Shown here piece by piece: positions 4,299-19,434 of a DNA stretch of 32,000 bases (the first letter of the stretch is position 1; each line of letters opens with the position of its first letter). The notes under the pieces are model-generated. The model was not told where the DNA came from, did not search any database, and saw only the letters and a program-made list of their open reading frames with translations. A program made the position numbers and the translations under genes. The DNA is from Desulfotalea psychrophila LSv54 (GTDB taxonomy: Bacteria > Desulfobacterota > Desulfobulbia > Desulfobulbales > Desulfocapsaceae): NCBI RefSeq assembly GCF_000025945.1, contig NC_006138.1, positions 330,001 to 362,000 on the forward strand. The letters are read 5' to 3'.

Positions 4299-7054
4299 GC
4301 CAAAGGGACGCAATGAAAACCACTCAATCTTGGCACGACAAAACCTGCGAACAAAGCCTAGCTGAACTGAAAACAGGGACCGCAGGTTTGGATGAGATCG
4401 AGGCGAAACAACGACTCTCCAATTTTGGCCCTAATCGGTTGACGGAACCGGCACGACGTCATGTCCTCCTCCGTTTTTTGCACCACTTTCACAACATCCT
4501 CATCTACGTTCTCCTCATTGCCGCCGGCATTACCACCCTGCTCGACCGCCTGCTTAATACATTTGTGATCATTGCCGTGGTGATTATCAACGCCATCATC
4601 GGTTTTTTACAGGAGGGCAAAGCAGAGACGGCCATGGAGGCTATACGGCATATGCTGGCTCTACGTGCAGCCGTTATTCGCGGCGGCAGACGACAAACCA
4701 TAGTGGGCGAAGAGTTGGTCCCCGGTGACATTGTCTTGCTGGAAGCTGGCGACAAGGTGCCAGCTGATTTGCGCCTGCTCACCAGCCACGGTTTACAGAT
4801 CCAGGAATCCATTCTCACCGGCGAGTCCATGGCCGCTACAAAACAGACAGAGCCCGTCGCGAAAGGCGCACCGCTTGGCGACCGTTCCTCCATGGCCTAT
4901 AGCGGCACAACCGTCGTCTCTGGACAGGCAATGGGGGTGGTGGTTGCCACCGGCGGAGAGACGGAGATCGGACGCATCAGTGTCCTGCTCGCGCGAGTGG
5001 AGATGCTGACCACTCCCCTGGTAGCCAAGATGGAGGTCTTCGCTAAGTGGCTTACCCTCTTCATCCTTACCTTGGCAAGCCTGATTCTTCTCGTCGGCTA
5101 CTTTGTCCTCCATCAGGACTTTACCGATCTGTTCATGGCGGTAGTAGGTCTCTCTGTCGCGGCCATACCAGAGGGATTGCCGGCAGTGCTGACCATCACT
5201 CTGGCCATGGGAGTGCAGATCATGGCGCGCCATAATGCCATTATTCGCCTTCTGCCGGCCATCGAAACCCTGGGATCAATATCTGTGATCTGTTCCGACA
5301 AGACGGGTACCTTTACCCGTAATGAAATGAAAGTGGCTTCGGTGATCACCAGCCGGAACCACTTCAATGTCGACGGATCAGGCTATGAACCAGCGGGAGA
5401 TATTAGGCTGGAAGAGCAGACTGTCACCATTGCCAATCATCCAGCACTGCTGGATCTAGGCCGGACGGCAGCGCTTTGCAACAACGCTGTCCTGACAAGA
5501 GTAGCTGAAACATGGCAGGTTGAAGGCGATCCTATGGAGGGTGCCCTGCTGGCCTTTGCCGGAAAAACCGGCTTTGATGATCACAAGGCGCACATTGAAT
5601 GGACATGCACCGACATGATACCCTTCGACGCCGAACATAAGTTCATGGCCACCCTCAACCACGACCATAAAAACAAGGCCGCTATCTTCGTCAAGGGTGC
5701 CCCGGAGAAGGTGCTTACCATGTGCCGGAAACAGGGGCTTAGTGCAAGCGAAACAGAACCACTGGATCATGACTACTGGGAAGAGCAGGCCCAGTTCATT
5801 GCAAGCCAGGGCCAGCGCGTACTTGCCCTGGCAGCCAAGCCAATGAAACCGGAGCATATGGTACTGGCACATGCAGATATAGAGGATTCACTGATATTTC
5901 TGGGACTGGTTGGCCTCATGGACCCGCCGCGGCCAGAGGCAATTATGGCGGTGGCTGAATGCCACCTTGCCAGCATTGAGGTGAAGATGATCACCGGTGA
6001 TCATGCGGCAACAGCAGTCGCCATCGGCAACCAACTCGGACTAAGAAACACCAACAGGGTACTGACCGGGGCAGAGCTGGACACACTTGACGAAGCAACG
6101 CTTGCGGCAAGAGTCAGTAAAATCGGGATCTTTGCCCGCACCAGCCCGGAGCATAAATTACGACTGGTAATGGCCCTACAGGCCAATGGCATGACCGTAG
6201 CCATGACCGGAGACGGGGTTAATGATGCACCAGCACTCAAACGCGCCGATGTAGGCATATCCATGGGTAAGAACGGTAGCGAAGCAGCCAAGGAGGCGGC
6301 AGAAATTGTCCTGACCGATGACAATTTCGCCTCTATTGTTGCAGCGATACGCGAGGGACGAAGGGTCCACGACAATATAAAGAAGGTAATAAACTGGACC
6401 CTACCGACCAATGCCGCCGAGGCCCTGACCATCGTTCTGGCCCTAATGCTGGGGATGACCCTGCCCATCACCCCGATCCTCATCCTCTGGGTGAACACCA
6501 TCACTGCGGTGACCTTGGGTATCGCCCTGGCCTTTGAACCGACAGAAAAAAAAGTCATGCTCCGTCCGCCCCGACCCCACGGTGAACCGCTCTTGAGTGG
6601 CGAACTGCTATGGCATGTCGCCCTGGTGGCGAGTCTATTTCTGATTGGGGTATTTGGCATCTTCAACTACGCCATTGAACGCGGCTACTCTGTGAATCTG
6701 GCCCGGACCATTGCCATGAATACACTTGTGATGCTGGAAACATTTCAGCTTTTTTTCATCCGCAATATGCATGTAACCTCACTCAGCTGGAAGGCAGTAC
6801 GCGGAACAAAGGCAGTATGGATAGCGGTCAGCACCGTCATCCTTGGCCAATTTGCCATCACCTATTTACCATGGTTACAAATGGTGTTCGAAACTGAGGA
6901 GATAGCGTTATTGGATCTCTTTCTGATAATCGGCATAGGCGCACTGACCTTTATCGCTATCGAGATCGAAAAGCAGATACGTCTTCGCCTGTACAGAGAG
7001 TTCACCCTGGTTGGCATCTTCAAAAAAATATATCGGAAATTTAGCATGATGTAA
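4295..7054 (+). CDS. Cation-transporting P-type ATPase (type II, Ca2+/Mg2+/Na+-like)
   Basis: TGES actuator motif, phosphorylation motif CSDKTGTFT, KGAPE, MITGDH and hinge motif TGDGVNDAPALKRADVGISMG, with about 10 TM segments. A GTG start at 4295 overlaps the antiporter stop. An alternative ATG lies at 4313. Confidence 0.9.
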   Translation: MSQRDAMKTTQSWHDKTCEQSLAELKTGTAGLDEIEAKQRLSNFGPNRLTEPARRHVLLRFLHHFHNILIYVLLIAAGITTLLDRLLNTFVIIAVVIINAIIGFLQEGKAETAMEAIRHMLALRAAVIRGGRRQTIVGEELVPGDIVLLEAGDKVPADLRLLTSHGLQIQESILTGESMAATKQTEPVAKGAPLGDRSSMAYSGTTVVSGQAMGVVVATGGETEIGRISVLLARVEMLTTPLVAKMEVFAKWLTLFILTLASLILLVGYFVLHQDFTDLFMAVVGLSVAAIPEGLPAVLTITLAMGVQIMARHNAIIRLLPAIETLGSISVICSDKTGTFTRNEMKVASVITSRNHFNVDGSGYEPAGDIRLEEQTVTIANHPALLDLGRTAALCNNAVLTRVAETWQVEGDPMEGALLAFAGKTGFDDHKAHIEWTCTDMIPFDAEHKFMATLNHDHKNKAAIFVKGAPEKVLTMCRKQGLSASETEPLDHDYWEEQAQFIASQGQRVLALAAKPMKPEHMVLAHADIEDSLIFLGLVGLMDPPRPEAIMAVAECHLASIEVKMITGDHAATAVAIGNQLGLRNTNRVLTGAELDTLDEATLAARVSKIGIFARTSPEHKLRLVMALQANGMTVAMTGDGVNDAPALKRADVGISMGKNGSEAAKEAAEIVLTDDNFASIVAAIREGRRVHDNIKKVINWTLPTNAAEALTIVLALMLGMTLPITPILILWVNTITAVTLGIALAFEPTEKKVMLRPPRPHGEPLLSGELLWHVALVASLFLIGVFGIFNYAIERGYSVNLARTIAMNTLVMLETFQLFFIRNMHVTSLSWKAVRGTKAVWIAVSTVILGQFAITYLPWLQMVFETEEIALLDLFLIIGIGALTFIAIEIEKQIRLRLYREFTLVGIFKKIYRKFSMM

Positions 7055-7244
7055 GCTTGCCATTGCAGAAAGAGAGAGGATCTTAAATCAGTACATTCTG
7101 CAACCAATGAGCCAGCAAGCTCTACCAGAAAAAAAACTGGCGCGGGTAAATCCTCTTAAAAACAGATTTTGAGCATCTCACTGAGGTGGAACAAGACAAA
7201 TCATTCACATTGACCTAACAGCATAGTTTTTTTTGGAGAAAATA

Positions 7245-8387
7245 ATGAGCGACAAAGACATCACCTGCCCCAAGTGTTCACACCAACAAAACAGTGAGGC
7301 AGAATGCGAGTCCTGCGGTATTATTTTCGCAAAGCATCAACTCTTTCTTGAAAAGAAAAAGGCGACAGCAGAGGCGCAAGAGATTCCACTCCCTGAGAGA
7401 AAAAGAGAGGTCAGCGGCCCTTCATTTACCATCCTGATCCTCCTTCTGGTCTTATGTACTGCCGCCACCACCTATTATTTTGTAAAACCAAGGGCCACCG
7501 CCCCGCCGCCAACTATCACAGCCAGCGAAAGCAGAACTGTAAAACCTGCGTCCACAGGTAAAATTACCCGACAAGAGCTTGCTCCCCTAACCAATTTGAC
7601 AACAACAGATGCTATTGCCAGGGCCCTACGGGCGACGGTACAGATACGGACAGCATGGAGTACCGGCTCCGGTTTTTTCCTCACCGATAGTTTTATTATC
7701 ACCAATCGGCATGTGGTAAAAGCCGTAAAACAGGACTTTTCGGAGCAGCGAAGAAATATCAACAATACAAGAAAACTGGTGGAGCTTGAAAAGCAGAAGA
7801 TACGCAATCTCCATGCACGGCTGAAAAAGATGGCCAAGGGCCCGGGACGCGAACAGCTAAAAATTATTATTGCAGAACATGAACGCCAACTTGCCCTGGT
7901 ACTCCCAAAACTTTCACAGAAAGAAAACGAATTAAAAAATTTGGAAAAGGCAGTGACAGAGAGAGGTGACATTGTTGTCTATATGGCCGATGGTAGCAAA
8001 CACACTGGATATCTCACCCAGGTAAGTGACCACTATGACTTAGCTCTTCTTTCTATCTTTTCCGTCGAGCATGGCAAAATCCCCCTAGCGCCAGCGGGCT
8101 CAAAGCTCCAACAGGGAGATAAGGTTTATACTATAGGCAGCCCCGTCGGCCTACAAAACACTGTTACTGCAGGCATTTTCTCTGGCTACAGAAGAGCAGA
8201 TGACAGTAAAAAAATATATCTGCAGACAGATGCGGCAATTAATCCAGGAAATAGCGGTGGGCCGCTCATTGACGAAAACGGTCATATTCGTGGCATAAAC
8301 ACCATGGTTCTAAAAAATACAGAGGGTATTGGCTTCGCCATTCCCATTGAAAAGGTTTATGAGGATTTTGGTTCAGTCCTTTACTAA
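7245..8387 (+). CDS. Membrane-anchored trypsin-like (S1C/HtrA-like) serine protease with N-terminal zinc ribbon, no PDZ
   Basis: CPKC...CESC zinc ribbon, one TM (FTILILLLVLCTAATTYYFV), catalytic His (ITNRHVV), Asp (YDLALLSI) and Ser (NPGNSGGPL). GGAG lies 6 nt before the ATG at 7245; the track ORF opens at a TTG at 7233. Confidence 0.85.
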   Translation: MSDKDITCPKCSHQQNSEAECESCGIIFAKHQLFLEKKKATAEAQEIPLPERKREVSGPSFTILILLLVLCTAATTYYFVKPRATAPPPTITASESRTVKPASTGKITRQELAPLTNLTTTDAIARALRATVQIRTAWSTGSGFFLTDSFIITNRHVVKAVKQDFSEQRRNINNTRKLVELEKQKIRNLHARLKKMAKGPGREQLKIIIAEHERQLALVLPKLSQKENELKNLEKAVTERGDIVVYMADGSKHTGYLTQVSDHYDLALLSIFSVEHGKIPLAPAGSKLQQGDKVYTIGSPVGLQNTVTAGIFSGYRRADDSKKIYLQTDAAINPGNSGGPLIDENGHIRGINTMVLKNTEGIGFAIPIEKVYEDFGSVLY

Positions 8388-8569
8388 ACAATTAGCTTAA
8401 CAGCTGGCCATGCGTCCGAGTTGAAGGAGGGGCATGAAACTAGCTGGCAAGATGTACAACAAAATACAATTATTCACAGTTATCTCCCCTAGGCAGTAGC
8501 TTAAATCAGCAAACAGCTTCTAACAAACAGATCTATTCCCCCCCCGAAATCCATCCCTATGGAGGAAGT

Positions 8570-10213
8570 ATGATTACAGTTTTGCATGGATACCTGCTTG
8601 AAGGCTCAGGAAGCAACCTATGGACCCGTGCCACTGTCCAATCTCTCTGTGAAAGCGGAGAAACCGTCCACCTCATGTGTCAAGAAAACCATCCGGATCT
8701 CTATGATTTTATCAGTGACGCAATACTTTATAAGGCAAATGGGAAGAGGGAAACCTTACTAAAACGCAAACCCATCTATCCAGGCAGATGCATTATGCAT
8801 AAACCGCATATAGGAGAGACACTGCCTGTCTATGTAAAGGATAAATATGAAGAATTTTCTGACGTACGACCAATGGTTGAACTCAGTGATGGAGAAATTG
8901 AAACATATCTGCGGACAAACGTTAAAATACTCCAGCAAATAGTAGACGAAAATGAAATTAAGGTTATTCTTGCCAACCATGCCGTTCTTATGTCTGTCGT
9001 TGCCCAACGAGTAGGAAAGACACGAAATATCCCCTATGCTATAATGCCCCATGGGAGCGCCATCGAATATGCTGTAAAAAAGGACAGGAGATATTTTAAC
9101 TATGCCGAAAGTGCATTTGCTGAGGCACAGAGAATATACGTCATTGGCAAAGAGATGAGAGAGAGGCTCAAGAACCTATTCACAAAATTGCCTCAGATTG
9201 AAGACAAAATGAAAGAGTTAAATCTGGGGGTCAACACCTCCCTCTTTAACCCCATAAAGAGAGAAGAGAGAAAAGACAATATAGGCAAGCTCTGCCTGGC
9301 ATTAGAAAAGGTGCCACGGGGCAAGACAGGCTCTCAACAGTCCATGCCAGAACAACTGACAGCCGATATTTCCAAGCGAAACTTATTGAGTATTATACAT
9401 GCCTCATCCTCTTACCATGCAAAATTTCCAGATGATAATGTCGAAGAAAAGTTGCAAATGGTGGAGTGGAATAATGAAAAAATCATTCTATTTGTTGGTC
9501 GACTCATCGCAAACAAAGGTCTCCATTCAATCATAGCCGCCCTACCTGAAATACTTGCCAATCAAGTAAATACACGCCTGATCATAGTAGGACACGGTCC
9601 ACAACGCGAACAACTTGAAACACTTATTTGGGCATTACAAAACGGACACTCAGACTTAGTCCTTAATCTTGTAAACTGGGGAAGAGAGCTGGAGGGTGAC
9701 GGGGAAAGCGCCTGGCAAGAGATACAGCTCTATTTTAATCACCTGAAAAAACATGATAAGCTGACTCCATATTTTAAAAAAGCGCAAAAGCACCTGAAGC
9801 AAGACAGCGTAATATTCACAGGATACCTTACTCACAAAGAGCTGTGTCACCTGTTTCCTGCATGCGACGTAGCAATTTTTCCATCTATTGTCGCCGAGGC
9901 CGGCCCCCTGGTATTTTTAGAGGCAATGGCCTCAGCTTGCTTTCCCATCGGCACATATTTTGCTGGCATGGCGGCGAGCATAGATTCCGTAGCAGATGCC
10001 CTTCCTCAGAATGTAGTAGACTTAATGAAAATAAGTCCACGGCCTGAGCAAACGGTAATGGATATCATAGCGAAGACAAAAGGCGCCCTCTCTGTTGACA
10101 GATATTACAAAGAAAAATTACGCAGGATTGCCATTGAAAAATATGATTGGAAAAACATCAGCAAAGTCCTGGCCTCAGATTTACACAGATTGCAGACATT
10201 AGTGAAAAGATAA
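8570..10213 (+). CDS. GT-B fold glycosyltransferase (family 4 / 'glycosyl transferases group 1'-like), unusually long
   Basis: 547 aa with GGAGGAAG SD upstream. The C-terminal half has the GT4 pattern (ILFVGRLIANKG..., FPSIVAEAGPLVFLEAMA with the E-x7-E-like motif). Extra inserts sit between the two Rossmann halves. Substrate is unknown. Confidence 0.75.
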   Translation: MITVLHGYLLEGSGSNLWTRATVQSLCESGETVHLMCQENHPDLYDFISDAILYKANGKRETLLKRKPIYPGRCIMHKPHIGETLPVYVKDKYEEFSDVRPMVELSDGEIETYLRTNVKILQQIVDENEIKVILANHAVLMSVVAQRVGKTRNIPYAIMPHGSAIEYAVKKDRRYFNYAESAFAEAQRIYVIGKEMRERLKNLFTKLPQIEDKMKELNLGVNTSLFNPIKREERKDNIGKLCLALEKVPRGKTGSQQSMPEQLTADISKRNLLSIIHASSSYHAKFPDDNVEEKLQMVEWNNEKIILFVGRLIANKGLHSIIAALPEILANQVNTRLIIVGHGPQREQLETLIWALQNGHSDLVLNLVNWGRELEGDGESAWQEIQLYFNHLKKHDKLTPYFKKAQKHLKQDSVIFTGYLTHKELCHLFPACDVAIFPSIVAEAGPLVFLEAMASACFPIGTYFAGMAASIDSVADALPQNVVDLMKISPRPEQTVMDIIAKTKGALSVDRYYKEKLRRIAIEKYDWKNISKVLASDLHRLQTLVKR

Positions 10214-10306
10214 GGGTTAAGAGGATCTTCTTAAACTCGATTTCCGGCATCCAGCCAAATAAAGACATTGCTCGTCGGTGAATCCAATAATAAATGGGAG
10301 CAGATA

Positions 10307-10771
10307 ATGAGACGCCGTGACAAGGAGATAAAGGAGAGGAAAGAGATAGACAAGATTATTAACAGATGCACAGTATGCCGATTGGGAATGGCAAAAGACA
10401 ATATCCCCTATATAGTCCCCCTATCCTTTGCCTACGATGGATTAAACATCTACTTCCATACAGCTAAGAAAGGGCAAAAGATAGAGTATATAAACTCAAA
10501 CAGTCAGGTTTGCCTTGAATTTGAGACCGATATTAAGCTCATATCTGATGAAACATCACCCTGTCAATGGGGATTCTCATTTCAGACCGTCTTCTGCCAG
10601 GGCATGGTTACAGAAATTACCAATAAAGAGAAGAGAGTTGAGGCACTCAAACTGATAATCGCCCATTACTCAGAGAAGAAATGGGCGCTAGATGAGAGGA
10701 TGCTCAAATCAGTCAGAGTTTGGCAGGTCTCAATAAAGAGTTGGACAGGAAGCTCATCCAAGGACCGTTAA
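10307..10771 (+). CDS. Pyridoxamine 5'-phosphate oxidase-like FMN-binding protein (Nim-like subgroup)
   Basis: [62 protein letters not shown] matches the N-terminal pattern I recall for Nim/PNPOx split-barrel proteins. GGGAG lies 6 nt upstream of the ATG at 10307; the track ORF opens at a TTG at 10268. Confidence 0.75.
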
Positions 10772-10789
10772 TAATAATAATAATAATAG
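10769..10789 (+). repeat. (TAA)x6 + TAG microsatellite: seven consecutive in-frame stop codons
   Basis: Read directly: TAATAATAATAATAATAATAG begins with the stop codon of the PNPOx-like gene and ends 10 nt before the DHFR start. Confidence 0.95.
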
Positions 10790-10799
10790 AAGAGGTCAT

Positions 10800-11273
10800 A
10801 TGAAGATTTCACTCATGGCGGCAAAGTCTGAAAACGGAGTCATTGGTAAAGGAGCGGATATCCCCTGGATGGTCAAAGGGGAGCAGCTCTTATTCAAGGC
10901 GATAACCTTCAATCAATGGCTACTGGTTGGGAGAAAAACTTTCGACTCCATGGGGGTTCTGCCCAACCGTAAATACGCAGTCATCACCAGATCCGGCCTC
11001 CTCTCGCAGAATGACAATGTCCTCGTTTTTCCTTCCATAGAGGATGCTCTCCGTGAACTTGCTCAACAGACAGAGCATATTATAGTTGCAGGTGGTGGAG
11101 AAATATTCAAGGCCATGATTAACAGAGCCGACACCCTACATCTATCAACGGTTCATCAAAATATCGACGGAGATATTACCTTTCCTCAAGTACCGAAGGA
11201 TTTTAAATTAGTATTTGAGCAGTACTTTGAATCAAATATTAATTATACCTACCAGATATGGCAGAGACCATAG
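10800..11273 (+). CDS. folA: Dihydrofolate reductase, DfrA1-like (type A trimethoprim-resistance family homologue)
   Basis: 157 aa. DHFR motifs are [53 protein letters not shown] and a C-terminal [11 protein letters not shown]. By hand it aligns colinearly, without gaps, to my recalled DfrA1 sequence at roughly two-thirds identity (memory-based, unverified). Confidence 0.9.
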
Positions 11274-11806
11274 GCGACAGCAGACAGGATAAGTGTTGGG
11301 TTCCCACATGATTACAAAACCAAATCTACTCATATCAGCAAGAGCCATGAATTAGGCCACCACACCTTTGAAGCGGATCATATTCGAAAAGACGGGACAA
11401 TCTTTCCTGTCTATCACGACGTGACAACGGTGATAGATGAAGAGGACAGGCCTCTCTACAGTATCGTCAATATGTTGGATATCACCGATAGAAAAAGAGA
11501 TGAAAAAATTTCGTACTCACTTGGAAAAGCTTGTCGATGAACGGACCCAAGAGCTACAAAAGGCCTTAAATGAAATTAAGACATTAGAGGAAATAGTACC
11601 CATCTGTTTACATTGCAAAAAAAATACGCGACGACAAGGGCCACTGGAATCTCTTGCAGGCATTCCTAGAAAAACACTCCGACGCCTCCTTTAGCCATGG
11701 GATCTGCCCCGGATGCGTAGAAGAGTTCTATGGAAACGAGCCCTGCTCACAAGTCAGGTTCGGCTACTCATTCTATTTTCCAAGAGACTATGATAGTCTT
11801 CTATGA
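11274..11806 (+). pseudogene. 5'-truncated, twice-frameshifted remnant of a PAS-domain signalling protein with Cys-rich C-terminal tail
   Basis: Three frames read consecutively: ...FEADHIRKDGTIFPVYHDVTTVIDEEDRPLYSIVNMLDITDRK (PAS C-terminus), then MKKFRTHLEKLVDERTQELQKALNEIKTLEEIVPICLHCKK, then IRDDKGHWNLLQAFLEKHSDASFSHGICPGCVEEFYG. The frame switches fall at an A5 run (11492-11496) and an A8 run (11617-11624). The first frame has no start codon and runs in frame directly from the DHFR stop codon. Confidence 0.6.
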
Positions 11807-17739: not shown

Positions 17740-19434
17740 TCAGGCCTTCGACTGCCGAGAGAAGAAGAGGGCAGCGGAGTAGACCAGCAGAGGGAGAGCA
17801 AGCTGGAGAAGGGCATAGACAGCGGTGACTCGCATATCGCCTCCTGAGACCCTATTCACCGCCTCGGTGGTGATTGTGGGGAAACGTCCTGCCCCCACAT
17901 AGAGGGTGGGCAGGTACTGGACAAGGCTTACAGAAAATCCCGTTGCCAGAGAGAAGGCAATGGTCTTTTTCAGCATGGGGAGCTTCACCTGCAAAAGAGC
18001 GCGCCACCACGACCCGCGCAGAGAGAGGGCCAGATCAAAATAACGATTATCAAAAGAGCGATAACTCTGCCCCAGGGTAATAAAGACATAGGGCAGAACA
18101 AAAACCACATGGGAGAAAAGAAGGGCGACAAAACTGCCATCAAGTCCTGAGAAAACCGCTACCATCTGCAGACCAAAGACAAAGGAGATCTGGGGAAGAA
18201 GAAAGGGCAGATAGAGTAACCACAGACTGCGCCGCACCCGCGTCCCCTCTCCCCGCTGAAGAAGAACTCGCTCATACTCCAGACATCCCACCACAAGAAC
18301 AAGAGAGATCAGAGCGGATAAAACCCCCAAAAGAAGGGTTACCACGATGGGTTCCTGGGCTGAAAGCAGGCCCCTGTACCAGTAATGCCAGCTATAACTG
18401 GCGGGGAGGATATCCGGAAAACGCCATCTCCGCGAAACGGAGAGCAGGGCCAGACCGGCAAAGGCCGCCATAAAGAGAAGGCCCAGAGCCATAAGAAGTG
18501 GCCCGGCCCCGGCAAATACTCTGTCAAAAAGGGACGATCTGCCTCCACCAAGAAGCAGGGTCTGCCCCAGGCGGGCAAGTAGCCTCTCCGCCAAATAGCA
18601 GAGAGTAATGGCCAAAAGCACCAACAGACAGAGGGAGGTGGCCCCGGCCGAGGCAAGAAAAAAAGAGCTCGCCTCCCCCTGAATAAACCAGGAATGAACC
18701 AGAACAGCCAGGGTTGGCGGGCGGGAGGGGCCAATAATAAGGGCCACATCCACCACAGAGAGAGAGTAGGCCAGAACTGCCCAGAAAGAGAGGCGAAGAT
18801 GGGGGTAGAGTTGAGGGAGAATAATGGTCAACCAGATACGGGTCGGACCATAGCCAAAACTCTTCCCCAGCCAAATGAGCTTACCCGCCTCAATACGGCT
18901 CAGGGCCGCTATCCCCATAAAGAGAAGAAAGGCAATCTCCTTACAGGCAAGGACAAAGGCCAAACTTAGCCCCCAGGGATCTGCCACCAGGGAAAAGTTG
19001 GGGGGAATAGTCCAGCCGGTAAGCAGTGAGGCCAAGAGGCGCATCAGCCAACCACTGGGACTCAACAAAAAGAGAATGCCCAGGGTAAAGGAGACATGGG
19101 GAATGGCCAACCAAAAACCCAAAATGCGGTGCAGGAAGGCCCACATCTTCGTTCCATAGAGCCCCGCCAAAAGAAATAGGGCAACAAAGAGGGCCGCAAA
19201 GGAGGCCGCGAAGCCCGTTGTCAAGGTCAGCAAGAAGGCATCCCTCACCGCCGGATGGTCGAGAAAACGACTCAGATATCTACCGGTAAAACCCTCTCCT
19301 CCCAAGGCGGGCCAAAAGCCAAGGGCGGGTAAAATTGTGGCCACTCCTCCGAGGAGGACGGGCAAGAGAAAGAGCGAGAGACTTAAACAGGGAAAAAGGG
19401 CCAGCAGGATCTCTTTAGTAGATCTTGCCATCAC
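17740..19434 (-). CDS. ABC transporter permease, fused two-domain type (YnjC-like)
   Basis: 564-aa polytopic protein with two tandem binding-protein-dependent permease halves. Its start overlaps the SBP stop (ATGA). Confidence 0.85.
   Translation of the reverse strand: MMARSTKEILLALFPCLSLSLFLLPVLLGGVATILPALGFWPALGGEGFTGRYLSRFLDHPAVRDAFLLTLTTGFAASFAALFVALFLLAGLYGTKMWAFLHRILGFWLAIPHVSFTLGILFLLSPSGWLMRLLASLLTGWTIPPNFSLVADPWGLSLAFVLACKEIAFLLFMGIAALSRIEAGKLIWLGKSFGYGPTRIWLTIILPQLYPHLRLSFWAVLAYSLSVVDVALIIGPSRPPTLAVLVHSWFIQGEASSFFLASAGATSLCLLVLLAITLCYLAERLLARLGQTLLLGGGRSSLFDRVFAGAGPLLMALGLLFMAAFAGLALLSVSRRWRFPDILPASYSWHYWYRGLLSAQEPIVVTLLLGVLSALISLVLVVGCLEYERVLLQRGEGTRVRRSLWLLYLPFLLPQISFVFGLQMVAVFSGLDGSFVALLFSHVVFVLPYVFITLGQSYRSFDNRYFDLALSLRGSWWRALLQVKLPMLKKTIAFSLATGFSVSLVQYLPTLYVGAGRFPTITTEAVNRVSGGDMRVTAVYALLQLALPLLVYSAALFFSRQSKA

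Follow-up and report, generated by a model that had tools for sequence, protein, structure and literature searches.

The window, our name for the whole 32,000-nucleotide stretch of DNA analysed, belongs to Desulfotalea psychrophila LSv54, an Arctic sulfate reducer, and holds a dihydrofolate reductase (DHFR) gene, dfr, between a flavoprotein gene and the remnant of a sensor gene. The features at the locus are the following.

10268-10771, + strand: DP0310, a flavoprotein of the pyridoxamine-5′-phosphate-oxidase (PNPOx) fold, distantly NimA-like (Pfam Pyridox_ox_2, 76.8 bits; identical protein 177439.DP0310)
10769-10788, + strand: (TAA)6.7 microsatellite (Tandem Repeats Finder: period 3, 6.7 copies, 100% matches)
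10790-10795, + strand: Shine-Dalgarno-like AAGAGG, 4 nt 5′ of the dfr ATG (read from the sequence; AAGAGGTCATATG is identical in L085, the contig of a close relative)
10800-11273, + strand: dfr, DfrA1-family dihydrofolate reductase gene (ATG start, 157 aa, intact ORF)
11340-11806, + strand: remnant of a PAS-domain sensor pseudogene, N-terminally truncated (three-frame translations; Pfam PAS_9)

Judging by the tag of its neighbour DP0310, dfr presumably carries the locus tag DP0311.

Identity of the dihydrofolate reductase

The dfr product matched Pfam DHFR_1 (PF00186) along the entire model (positions 1-159 of 159) with 134.4 bits against a gathering threshold of 25. The DfrA1-like model of NCBIfam, NF000330, scored 283.3 bits (curated cutoff 250; E = 4.4e-85; residues 1-156 on model positions 1-156 of 157), and the canonical FolA model PRK10769/NF008037 scored 88.8 bits, below its cutoff of 168. 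A HMMER comparison with PDB sequences aligned residues 1-156 without a gap to residues 1-156 of DfrA1 (5ECC; E = 4e-70) and likewise of DfrA5 (7R6G; E about 1e-70), bearing out an earlier reading made from the letters alone (the sequence-only reading), according to which the 157-aa product is colinear with DfrA1 and gapless. The hand count of about 100 identities in 157 given there is close to the MAFFT count of about 102/157 (DfrA1 reference L012, the same sequence as 5ECC), which is in line with the 65.4% across 156 residues obtained by tblastn, and the matching blocks quoted there, SNINY-YQIWQ included, are all present in the protein. By MAFFT the identities to the other references were 109/157 for DfrA7, 105/157 for DfrA27, 102/157 for DfrA37 and 45/157 for Escherichia coli FolA. 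The tblastn search of 72,556 plasmids gave 68.6% identity for DfrA17 and DfrA7, 67.3% for DfrA27, 64.7-65.4% for DfrA1, 64.7% for DfrA14 and 64.1% for DfrA5, with DfrE at just 44% and DfrA12 at 36%. Membership of the DfrA1-type family, as first proposed, is upheld by the NF000330 score above cutoff, by the 64-70% identity to clinical alleles (where a value below 40% had been named as fatal to the idea) and by a 200/200 clade in the tree described below.

The ORF is a genuine, intact DfrA1-family DHFR gene on the chromosome of D. psychrophila. The family assignment is already known, the RefSeq label being "trimethoprim-resistant dihydrofolate reductase DfrA"; a look-up of the exact protein returned no record, and a search for publications on Desulfotalea with trimethoprim or DHFR found none that discusses the gene.

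Comparison with characterized enzymes places the protein closest in layout to DfrA1 (PDB 5ECC, 5ECX), with which it shares the length of 157 aa, about 102 of 157 residues, the NF000330 profile and a Glu/Gln pair at E. coli positions 27/28; the alignment is gapless and the loop lengths are therefore identical. It differs from DfrA1 at 35% of residues, one of them a Phe for Tyr at E. coli position 100; the gene is chromosomal and lacks attC, an integron and the GGTTAAC stop core, and its resistance is a prediction. The closest clinical alleles, DfrA7 and DfrA17 (~69-70% over the full length), fall in the same family clade, but they are integron-borne and not sister to the window protein, forming their own 198/200 clade with a cassette copy from Vibrio hepatarius. 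With E. coli FolA the protein has in common the DHFR_1 fold and the conserved catalytic and cofactor residues W22, F31, T46 and R57, whereas identity is only 30% with gaps, Asp27/Leu28 are replaced by Glu/Gln and the gene is not adjacent to thyA.

Trimethoprim signature and selection

In the alignment to E. coli FolA, E28 and Q29 of the window protein correspond to D27 and L28. Krucinska et al. showed experimentally that DfrA1 and DfrA5 owe their trimethoprim resistance to one shared structural cause, D27E together with L28Q (E. coli numbering; PMC9106665), and the two substitutions introduced jointly into E. coli DHFR lower its affinity for trimethoprim ~100-fold (PMC9106665). As in DfrA1 and DfrA5, the Glu/Gln pair would shift the position of trimethoprim and weaken its binding. 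Given this signature, intrinsic trimethoprim insensitivity of the window enzyme is likely, and for D. psychrophila this probable insensitivity is the only practical consequence. The sequence-only reading had held that insensitivity could not be read from the sequence; this was too cautious, since an experimentally validated signature is present and makes it likely.

Among the sampled DfrA1-like sequences, Glu occupies the first position in 158 of 159 and Gln the second in 158 of 159, while the canonical outgroups have Asp in 9/10 and Leu or Met in 9/10. Because of this near-uniformity in the sampled family members, the pair is an ancestral trait of the DfrA1-like family, and the insensitivity would have come by descent within the family and would owe nothing to exposure to the drug.

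Residues W23, F32, K33, T47 and R57 are conserved, and all catalytic or binding positions checked are kept. F103 stands where E. coli has Tyr100; Phe is found at this position in 15/159 family members and 6/10 canonical outgroups, and F103 is probably a common and harmless natural variant. Against its 85% identical homologue P0002, a metagenomic protein encoded on contig L085, the gene showed dN 0.088, dS 0.76 and dN/dS 0.12. These values indicate that dfr is kept under purifying selection and point to a long residence. The product, a type-I enzyme (FolA fold), would be an active DHFR that reduces dihydrofolate to tetrahydrofolate with NADPH.

Whether the organism depends on this copy bears on a different explanation, in which other DHFR-type genes serve the cell and dfr is a decaying or non-functional paralogue, dispensable cargo. 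The SEED folate table lists for D. psychrophila LSv54 three genes as 'Dhfr0' (pegs 705, 311 and 3216) and a ThyX (peg 2228), and no ThyA (PMC1971073). Peg 311 is presumably dfr, and peg 3216 may, from its number, lie on the large plasmid. Both the three Dhfr0 genes and the presence of ThyX without ThyA fit such a paralogue, as does the pseudogene next door, and dependence on ThyX implies a low demand for DHFR whether or not another FolA-type enzyme is present. Nevertheless, the table's authors caution that Dhfr0 entries may include PF01872 relatives instead of true FolA (PMC1971073), and dfr itself has an intact ORF with a good Shine-Dalgarno sequence, full conservation at the catalytic and binding positions checked and a dN/dS of 0.12, which makes a dispensable or decaying gene very unlikely.

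Upstream junction with DP0310

The gap of 28 nt between the DP0310 stop and the dfr start consists of (TAA)6.7 followed by AAGAGG-TCAT-ATG, and the two genes are probably co-transcribed with dfr as the second. The first TAA of the repeat is the DP0310 stop codon, the run ends in TAG, and shuffled sequences gave a chance expectation of zero matches. The 646-bp contig L085 is collinear with the window for 51 nt 5′ of dfr, comprising a 13/14-nt block within the end of the upstream ORF, TAA TGA TAA, and an identical ribosome-binding region. Since L085 has TAA TGA TAA at the same position, the (TAA)n run is a slipped expansion of tandem stop codons. On these 51 nt of a 646-bp contig, the DP0310-dfr junction appears to be shared with L085. 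The closest homologue of the DP0310 flavoprotein (64%) has no dfr following it. A role of DP0310 in nitroimidazole resistance, as a Nim enzyme, is contradicted by its NCBIfam NimABCDEF score of 58.5 bits, where the cutoff is 260.

Absence of an integron cassette

Clinical copies of the family carry an attC hairpin that starts from the stop codon (GGYTAAC...GCGTTAG), and so do the marine loci L008, L019-L023, L027 and L041. That so many family members are cassettes of this kind lends some plausibility to a recent capture of an integron cassette by D. psychrophila, or to contamination of the assembly by a clinical resistance element. We scored attC with a test for hairpins paired AAC...GTT at their ends, a heuristic calibrated on the dfrA1, A5, A14 and A17 cassettes and not the IntegronFinder covariance model. 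This end-paired test detected no attC hairpin at dfr in the window or in L085. The stop codon lies in CCATAGG in the window, versus the GGYTAAC core in cassettes, so the R″ core is missing, and neither the window nor L085 has a TAAC context. Hairpin and TAAC context are also absent from the Vibrio salinus, Psychromonas PT13, two Marinomonas, Thermodesulfobacteriota MAG and Desulfatiglandales copies; marine relatives without attC include L010, L026, L032, L037 and L084. A tblastn search with IntI1 gave no match in the window and matched clinical loci only. A stricter attC heuristic (RYYYAAC/GTTRRRY with an energy cutoff) was discarded, having missed known dfrA1 cassettes.

One further point could be taken in favour of a captured cassette: 25 nt beyond the dfr stop is the heptamer GTTGGGT, a match to the R′ consensus of attC. 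As an attC remnant it was rejected, however: a partner arm is lacking, and such a heptamer by itself is common, since from the degeneracy of the consensus ~60 would be expected per 32 kb. Capture or contamination is further contradicted by an identity of at most 70% to any clinical allele, by DP0310 lying 28 nt away, at a junction that appears common to a relative at dS 0.76, and by the location of the protein on a single 3.52-Mb contig. The gene is chromosomally fixed and not an integron cassette, and recent capture or contamination is effectively refuted.

Downstream pseudogene

About 66 nt after the dfr stop, a PAS_9 domain starts in mid-model: the reconstructed peptide matches its C-terminal half, positions 54-103 of 103. 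A coiled coil comes next and then a Cys-rich tail, and the three parts lie in three reading frames. The two frame changes fall near A-runs, at ~11501-11507 and ~11618-11626, which suggests decay by slippage after truncation. A rearrangement on the 3′ side of dfr would have cut a PAS sensor gene, which would have decayed since; 3′ of dfr the window and L085 are unrelated. As a separate observation, the Cys-rich tail reads PICLHCKKIRDDKGHW...HGICPGCVEEF.

The sequence-only reading had seen a local indel event in the stop-codon repeat and the truncated gene. The truncated neighbour is real and marks a 3′ rearrangement, but no attC, integrase or transposase accompanies it, and the repeat is a mere expansion of stop codons. 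Across the 32 kb, Pfam scans of the large ORFs turned up no domain of an integrase, a transposase or any other mobile element. The GC content of dfr is 43.9%, with 42-46% in the immediate neighbours and a window mean of 48.5%.

Relatives and phylogeny

With a threshold of E ≤ 1e-20, a protein search gave 436 matches, the majority at 63-75% identity and originating from metagenomes of marine or sediment samples. Relatives from named genomes were Photobacterium kagoshimensis (74%), Moritella, Vibrio salinus, Psychromonas, Porticoccaceae, Thiotrichaceae and Immundisolibacteraceae, and most of the named relatives among the matches listed are marine Gammaproteobacteria. At least 549 DfrA1-like loci occur in species-representative genomes (one genome per GTDB species), a scan that is a sample and in which LSv54 is not among the matches listed. 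The closest relative is P0002 at 85%, followed by sequences at 74-75%, one of them from Photobacterium; a metagenome scan returned nothing nearer than 75% to the window protein.

We compared 169 distinct sequences in a neighbour-joining tree with 200 bootstraps. A DfrA1-like clade of 159 sequences, including the window protein, separated from canonical FolA in 200/200 replicates, and within it the window protein paired with P0002 in 188/200. This pair was joined weakly to P0007 and Photobacterium (89/200 and 56/200), and the backbone of the clade is a star, with support of at most 45% above the pair. The clinical alleles formed several well-supported groups, namely DfrA1, DfrA5 with DfrA14, DfrA7 with DfrA17, DfrA27, DfrA16 and DfrA37, none of which is sister to the window protein in this tree.

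The marine DfrA1-like DHFRs of P. kagoshimensis, V. salinus, Moritella, Psychromonas and Marinomonas, together with P0002 and P0007, resemble the window protein in their 65-85% identity and chromosomal location, but they lie in non-syntenic contexts, some beside IS elements or in cassette arrays, and just L085 appears to share the DP0310-dfr junction. Comparison of the window ORFs with all 84 loci found no shared neighbours, and homologues of the downstream GGDEF protein (~60%) stand in other contexts with no shared synteny.

Part of the family is mobile at present. One identical DfrA1-like protein with a 126-nt attC occurs across genera, in a Neptunomonas MAG (L020), Bacterioplanoides pacificum (L021) and a Rheinheimera sp. 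(L022), which marks it as a mobile marine allele and shows that such genes currently move between marine bacteria. Near L020-L023 and L041, no homologue of IntI1 lies on the flanks examined, which reach 10 kb only for L021 and L041 and are much shorter for L022 and L023.

Several smaller observations concern individual loci. Near-identical copies of the L020-L022 allele occur in L023 (Corynebacterium lemuris) and L041, a spread that even crosses phyla. In Marinomonas sp. UCMA 3892 (L032:5900-9040), five ~90-nt repeats, 90-99% identical and spaced by 365-1684 nt, lie directly 5′ of the DfrA1-like gene, and this region looks like a chromosomal cassette array. In the phage collection only a P1-like element carried a clinical allele, and no marine phage vector is indicated. 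The stretches examined of the DfrA1-like loci hold no clear thyA; only in a Paraglaciecola psychrophila MAG (L044:8558-9358) does a weakly ThyA-like ORF (28% identity to the E. coli enzyme) directly precede the DfrA1-like gene. At the canonical folA loci L064-L080, thyA is on the same stretch in 15 of 17, usually immediately upstream.

Acquired or native origin

We favour, with a probability of about 0.72, the reading that dfr is an intact, functional and chromosomally fixed DfrA1-like DHFR gene, probably encoding a trimethoprim-insensitive enzyme, that was acquired horizontally long ago and is neither a cassette nor the progenitor of a clinical gene. The old horizontal acquisition is by itself likely. 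The gene would have entered the Desulfotalea lineage long ago from the large marine pool of DfrA1-like genes, and would have come to stand where it is now, second behind the DP0310 flavoprotein gene. The dS of 0.76 to a relative that apparently shares the DP0310-dfr junction implies an old residence, and a GC content similar to that of the neighbours also speaks for age. We infer the direction and age of the transfer from such comparisons; the donor lineage and the direction are tentative, because the internal branching has at most 45% support.

Similar observations have to be weighed for a native gene, inherited vertically as the ancestral housekeeping DHFR of Desulfotalea or the Desulfobacterota, in which case the mobile family would in the end go back to this lineage as its long-standing reservoir. 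The main argument for such inheritance comes from the Desulfatiglandales, an order of anaerobic sediment bacteria of which seven species (L050-L056) keep a DfrA1-like DHFR gene in conserved synteny, at ~5200-11100 in each locus. Their operon comprises an aminotransferase, homoserine dehydrogenase, an ApgM-like mutase, ThiD, dfr (4-nt gap) and an FMN reductase. These DHFRs are 53-55% identical to the window protein, carry a GEQ signature and score 249.1 bits on NF000330, borderline to the cutoff of 250. A basal or sister branch of the DfrA1 family thus has a stable place in the chromosomes of this order, and the synteny there is a more interesting lead than the window gene. Vertical inheritance would also fit a Thermodesulfobacteriota MAG copy (L040; 273 bits on NF000330, with matching GC), the purifying selection on dfr, the neighbour-like GC of the gene and the lack of mobile-element genes in the window.

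The pattern of identities argues the other way. The window protein is 74-75% identical to Photobacterium and metagenomic sequences versus 54% to the Desulfatiglandales clade, and it is also farther from the other 'Desulfotalea' copy, a 'Desulfotalea sp.' MAG (L049) whose protein is 67% identical, groups with Marinomonas in 197/200 replicates and comes from an unrelated locus. No synteny connects dfr with the other loci compared; the sequence-only reading had allowed that conserved synteny with ordinary Desulfobacterota FolA genes would speak against its view, and none was found with other Desulfobacterota DHFR loci. Also on this side, two Desulfovibrio genomes and Syntrophobacter have no FolA-type DHFR in the 2007 SEED folate table (PMC1971073), in which D. 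psychrophila has ThyX and no ThyA. The deep family branches are without support in either direction. On balance a native gene is unlikely, and an old acquisition remains the preferred explanation.

The L049 locus is of some interest in itself. On the 528-kb contig of MAG tPB_Delt2, an island directly 5′ of nrfHA (L049:9100-13600) holds the DfrA1-like gene together with HigBA-like and YefM/YoeB-like toxin-antitoxin pairs, two C-terminal fragments of IS91-like transposases and 86-nt repeats that are 99% identical.

More doubtful still than native inheritance is a broader scenario in which the family began as a housekeeping DHFR of anaerobic sediment Desulfobacterota and escaped into marine gammaproteobacterial cassettes, with clinical integrons reached later; the Desulfotalea copy would be a surviving or re-acquired branch. 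If true, this would mean that the largest clinical dfrA clade has deep chromosomal roots.

Bearing on the clinical dfrA genes

The dfrA1/5/7/14/17 group comprises the commonest trimethoprim-resistance genes, and its chromosomal source is not known (PMC7725336), in agreement with what the sequence-only reading had said of the dfrA1 clade. The dfrA1/5/7/14 group has ~41% GC, a mismatch with its enterobacterial hosts (PMC7725336). The suggestion that dfr represents a reservoir or ancestor does not stand, for the protein is at most 70% identical to any clinical allele, is sister to none and belongs to one of at least 549 loci; the secondary acquisition offered as the alternative fits better. Because identity does not exceed 70%, dfr is too distant to be the source or a recent progenitor of the clinical alleles. 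It is an ordinary family member, one among hundreds of environmental ones, and for work on the origin of resistance it adds one more data point and does not solve the question of the dfrA source.

What the locus illustrates is the setting of the family. DfrA1-like genes with the Glu/Gln pair are old and are found widely among bacteria of the sea and of sediments that were never under trimethoprim selection; in the environment some are cassettes and others are fixed in the chromosome. The resistance of these enzymes therefore looks like a property that they already had before integrons exploited it.

Other features of the window

The window contains no tRNA gene and, by Rfam, no riboswitch or other RNA. 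The + strand shows a very strong AT skew (0.42-0.49) at 17740-19434, coinciding with a 564-aa, highly hydrophobic ORF on the - strand that has no Pfam hit. This ORF adjoins a solute-binding protein gene and looks like a two-domain ABC permease; since it lies there, the skew at ~18-19.5 kb is an effect of codon composition.
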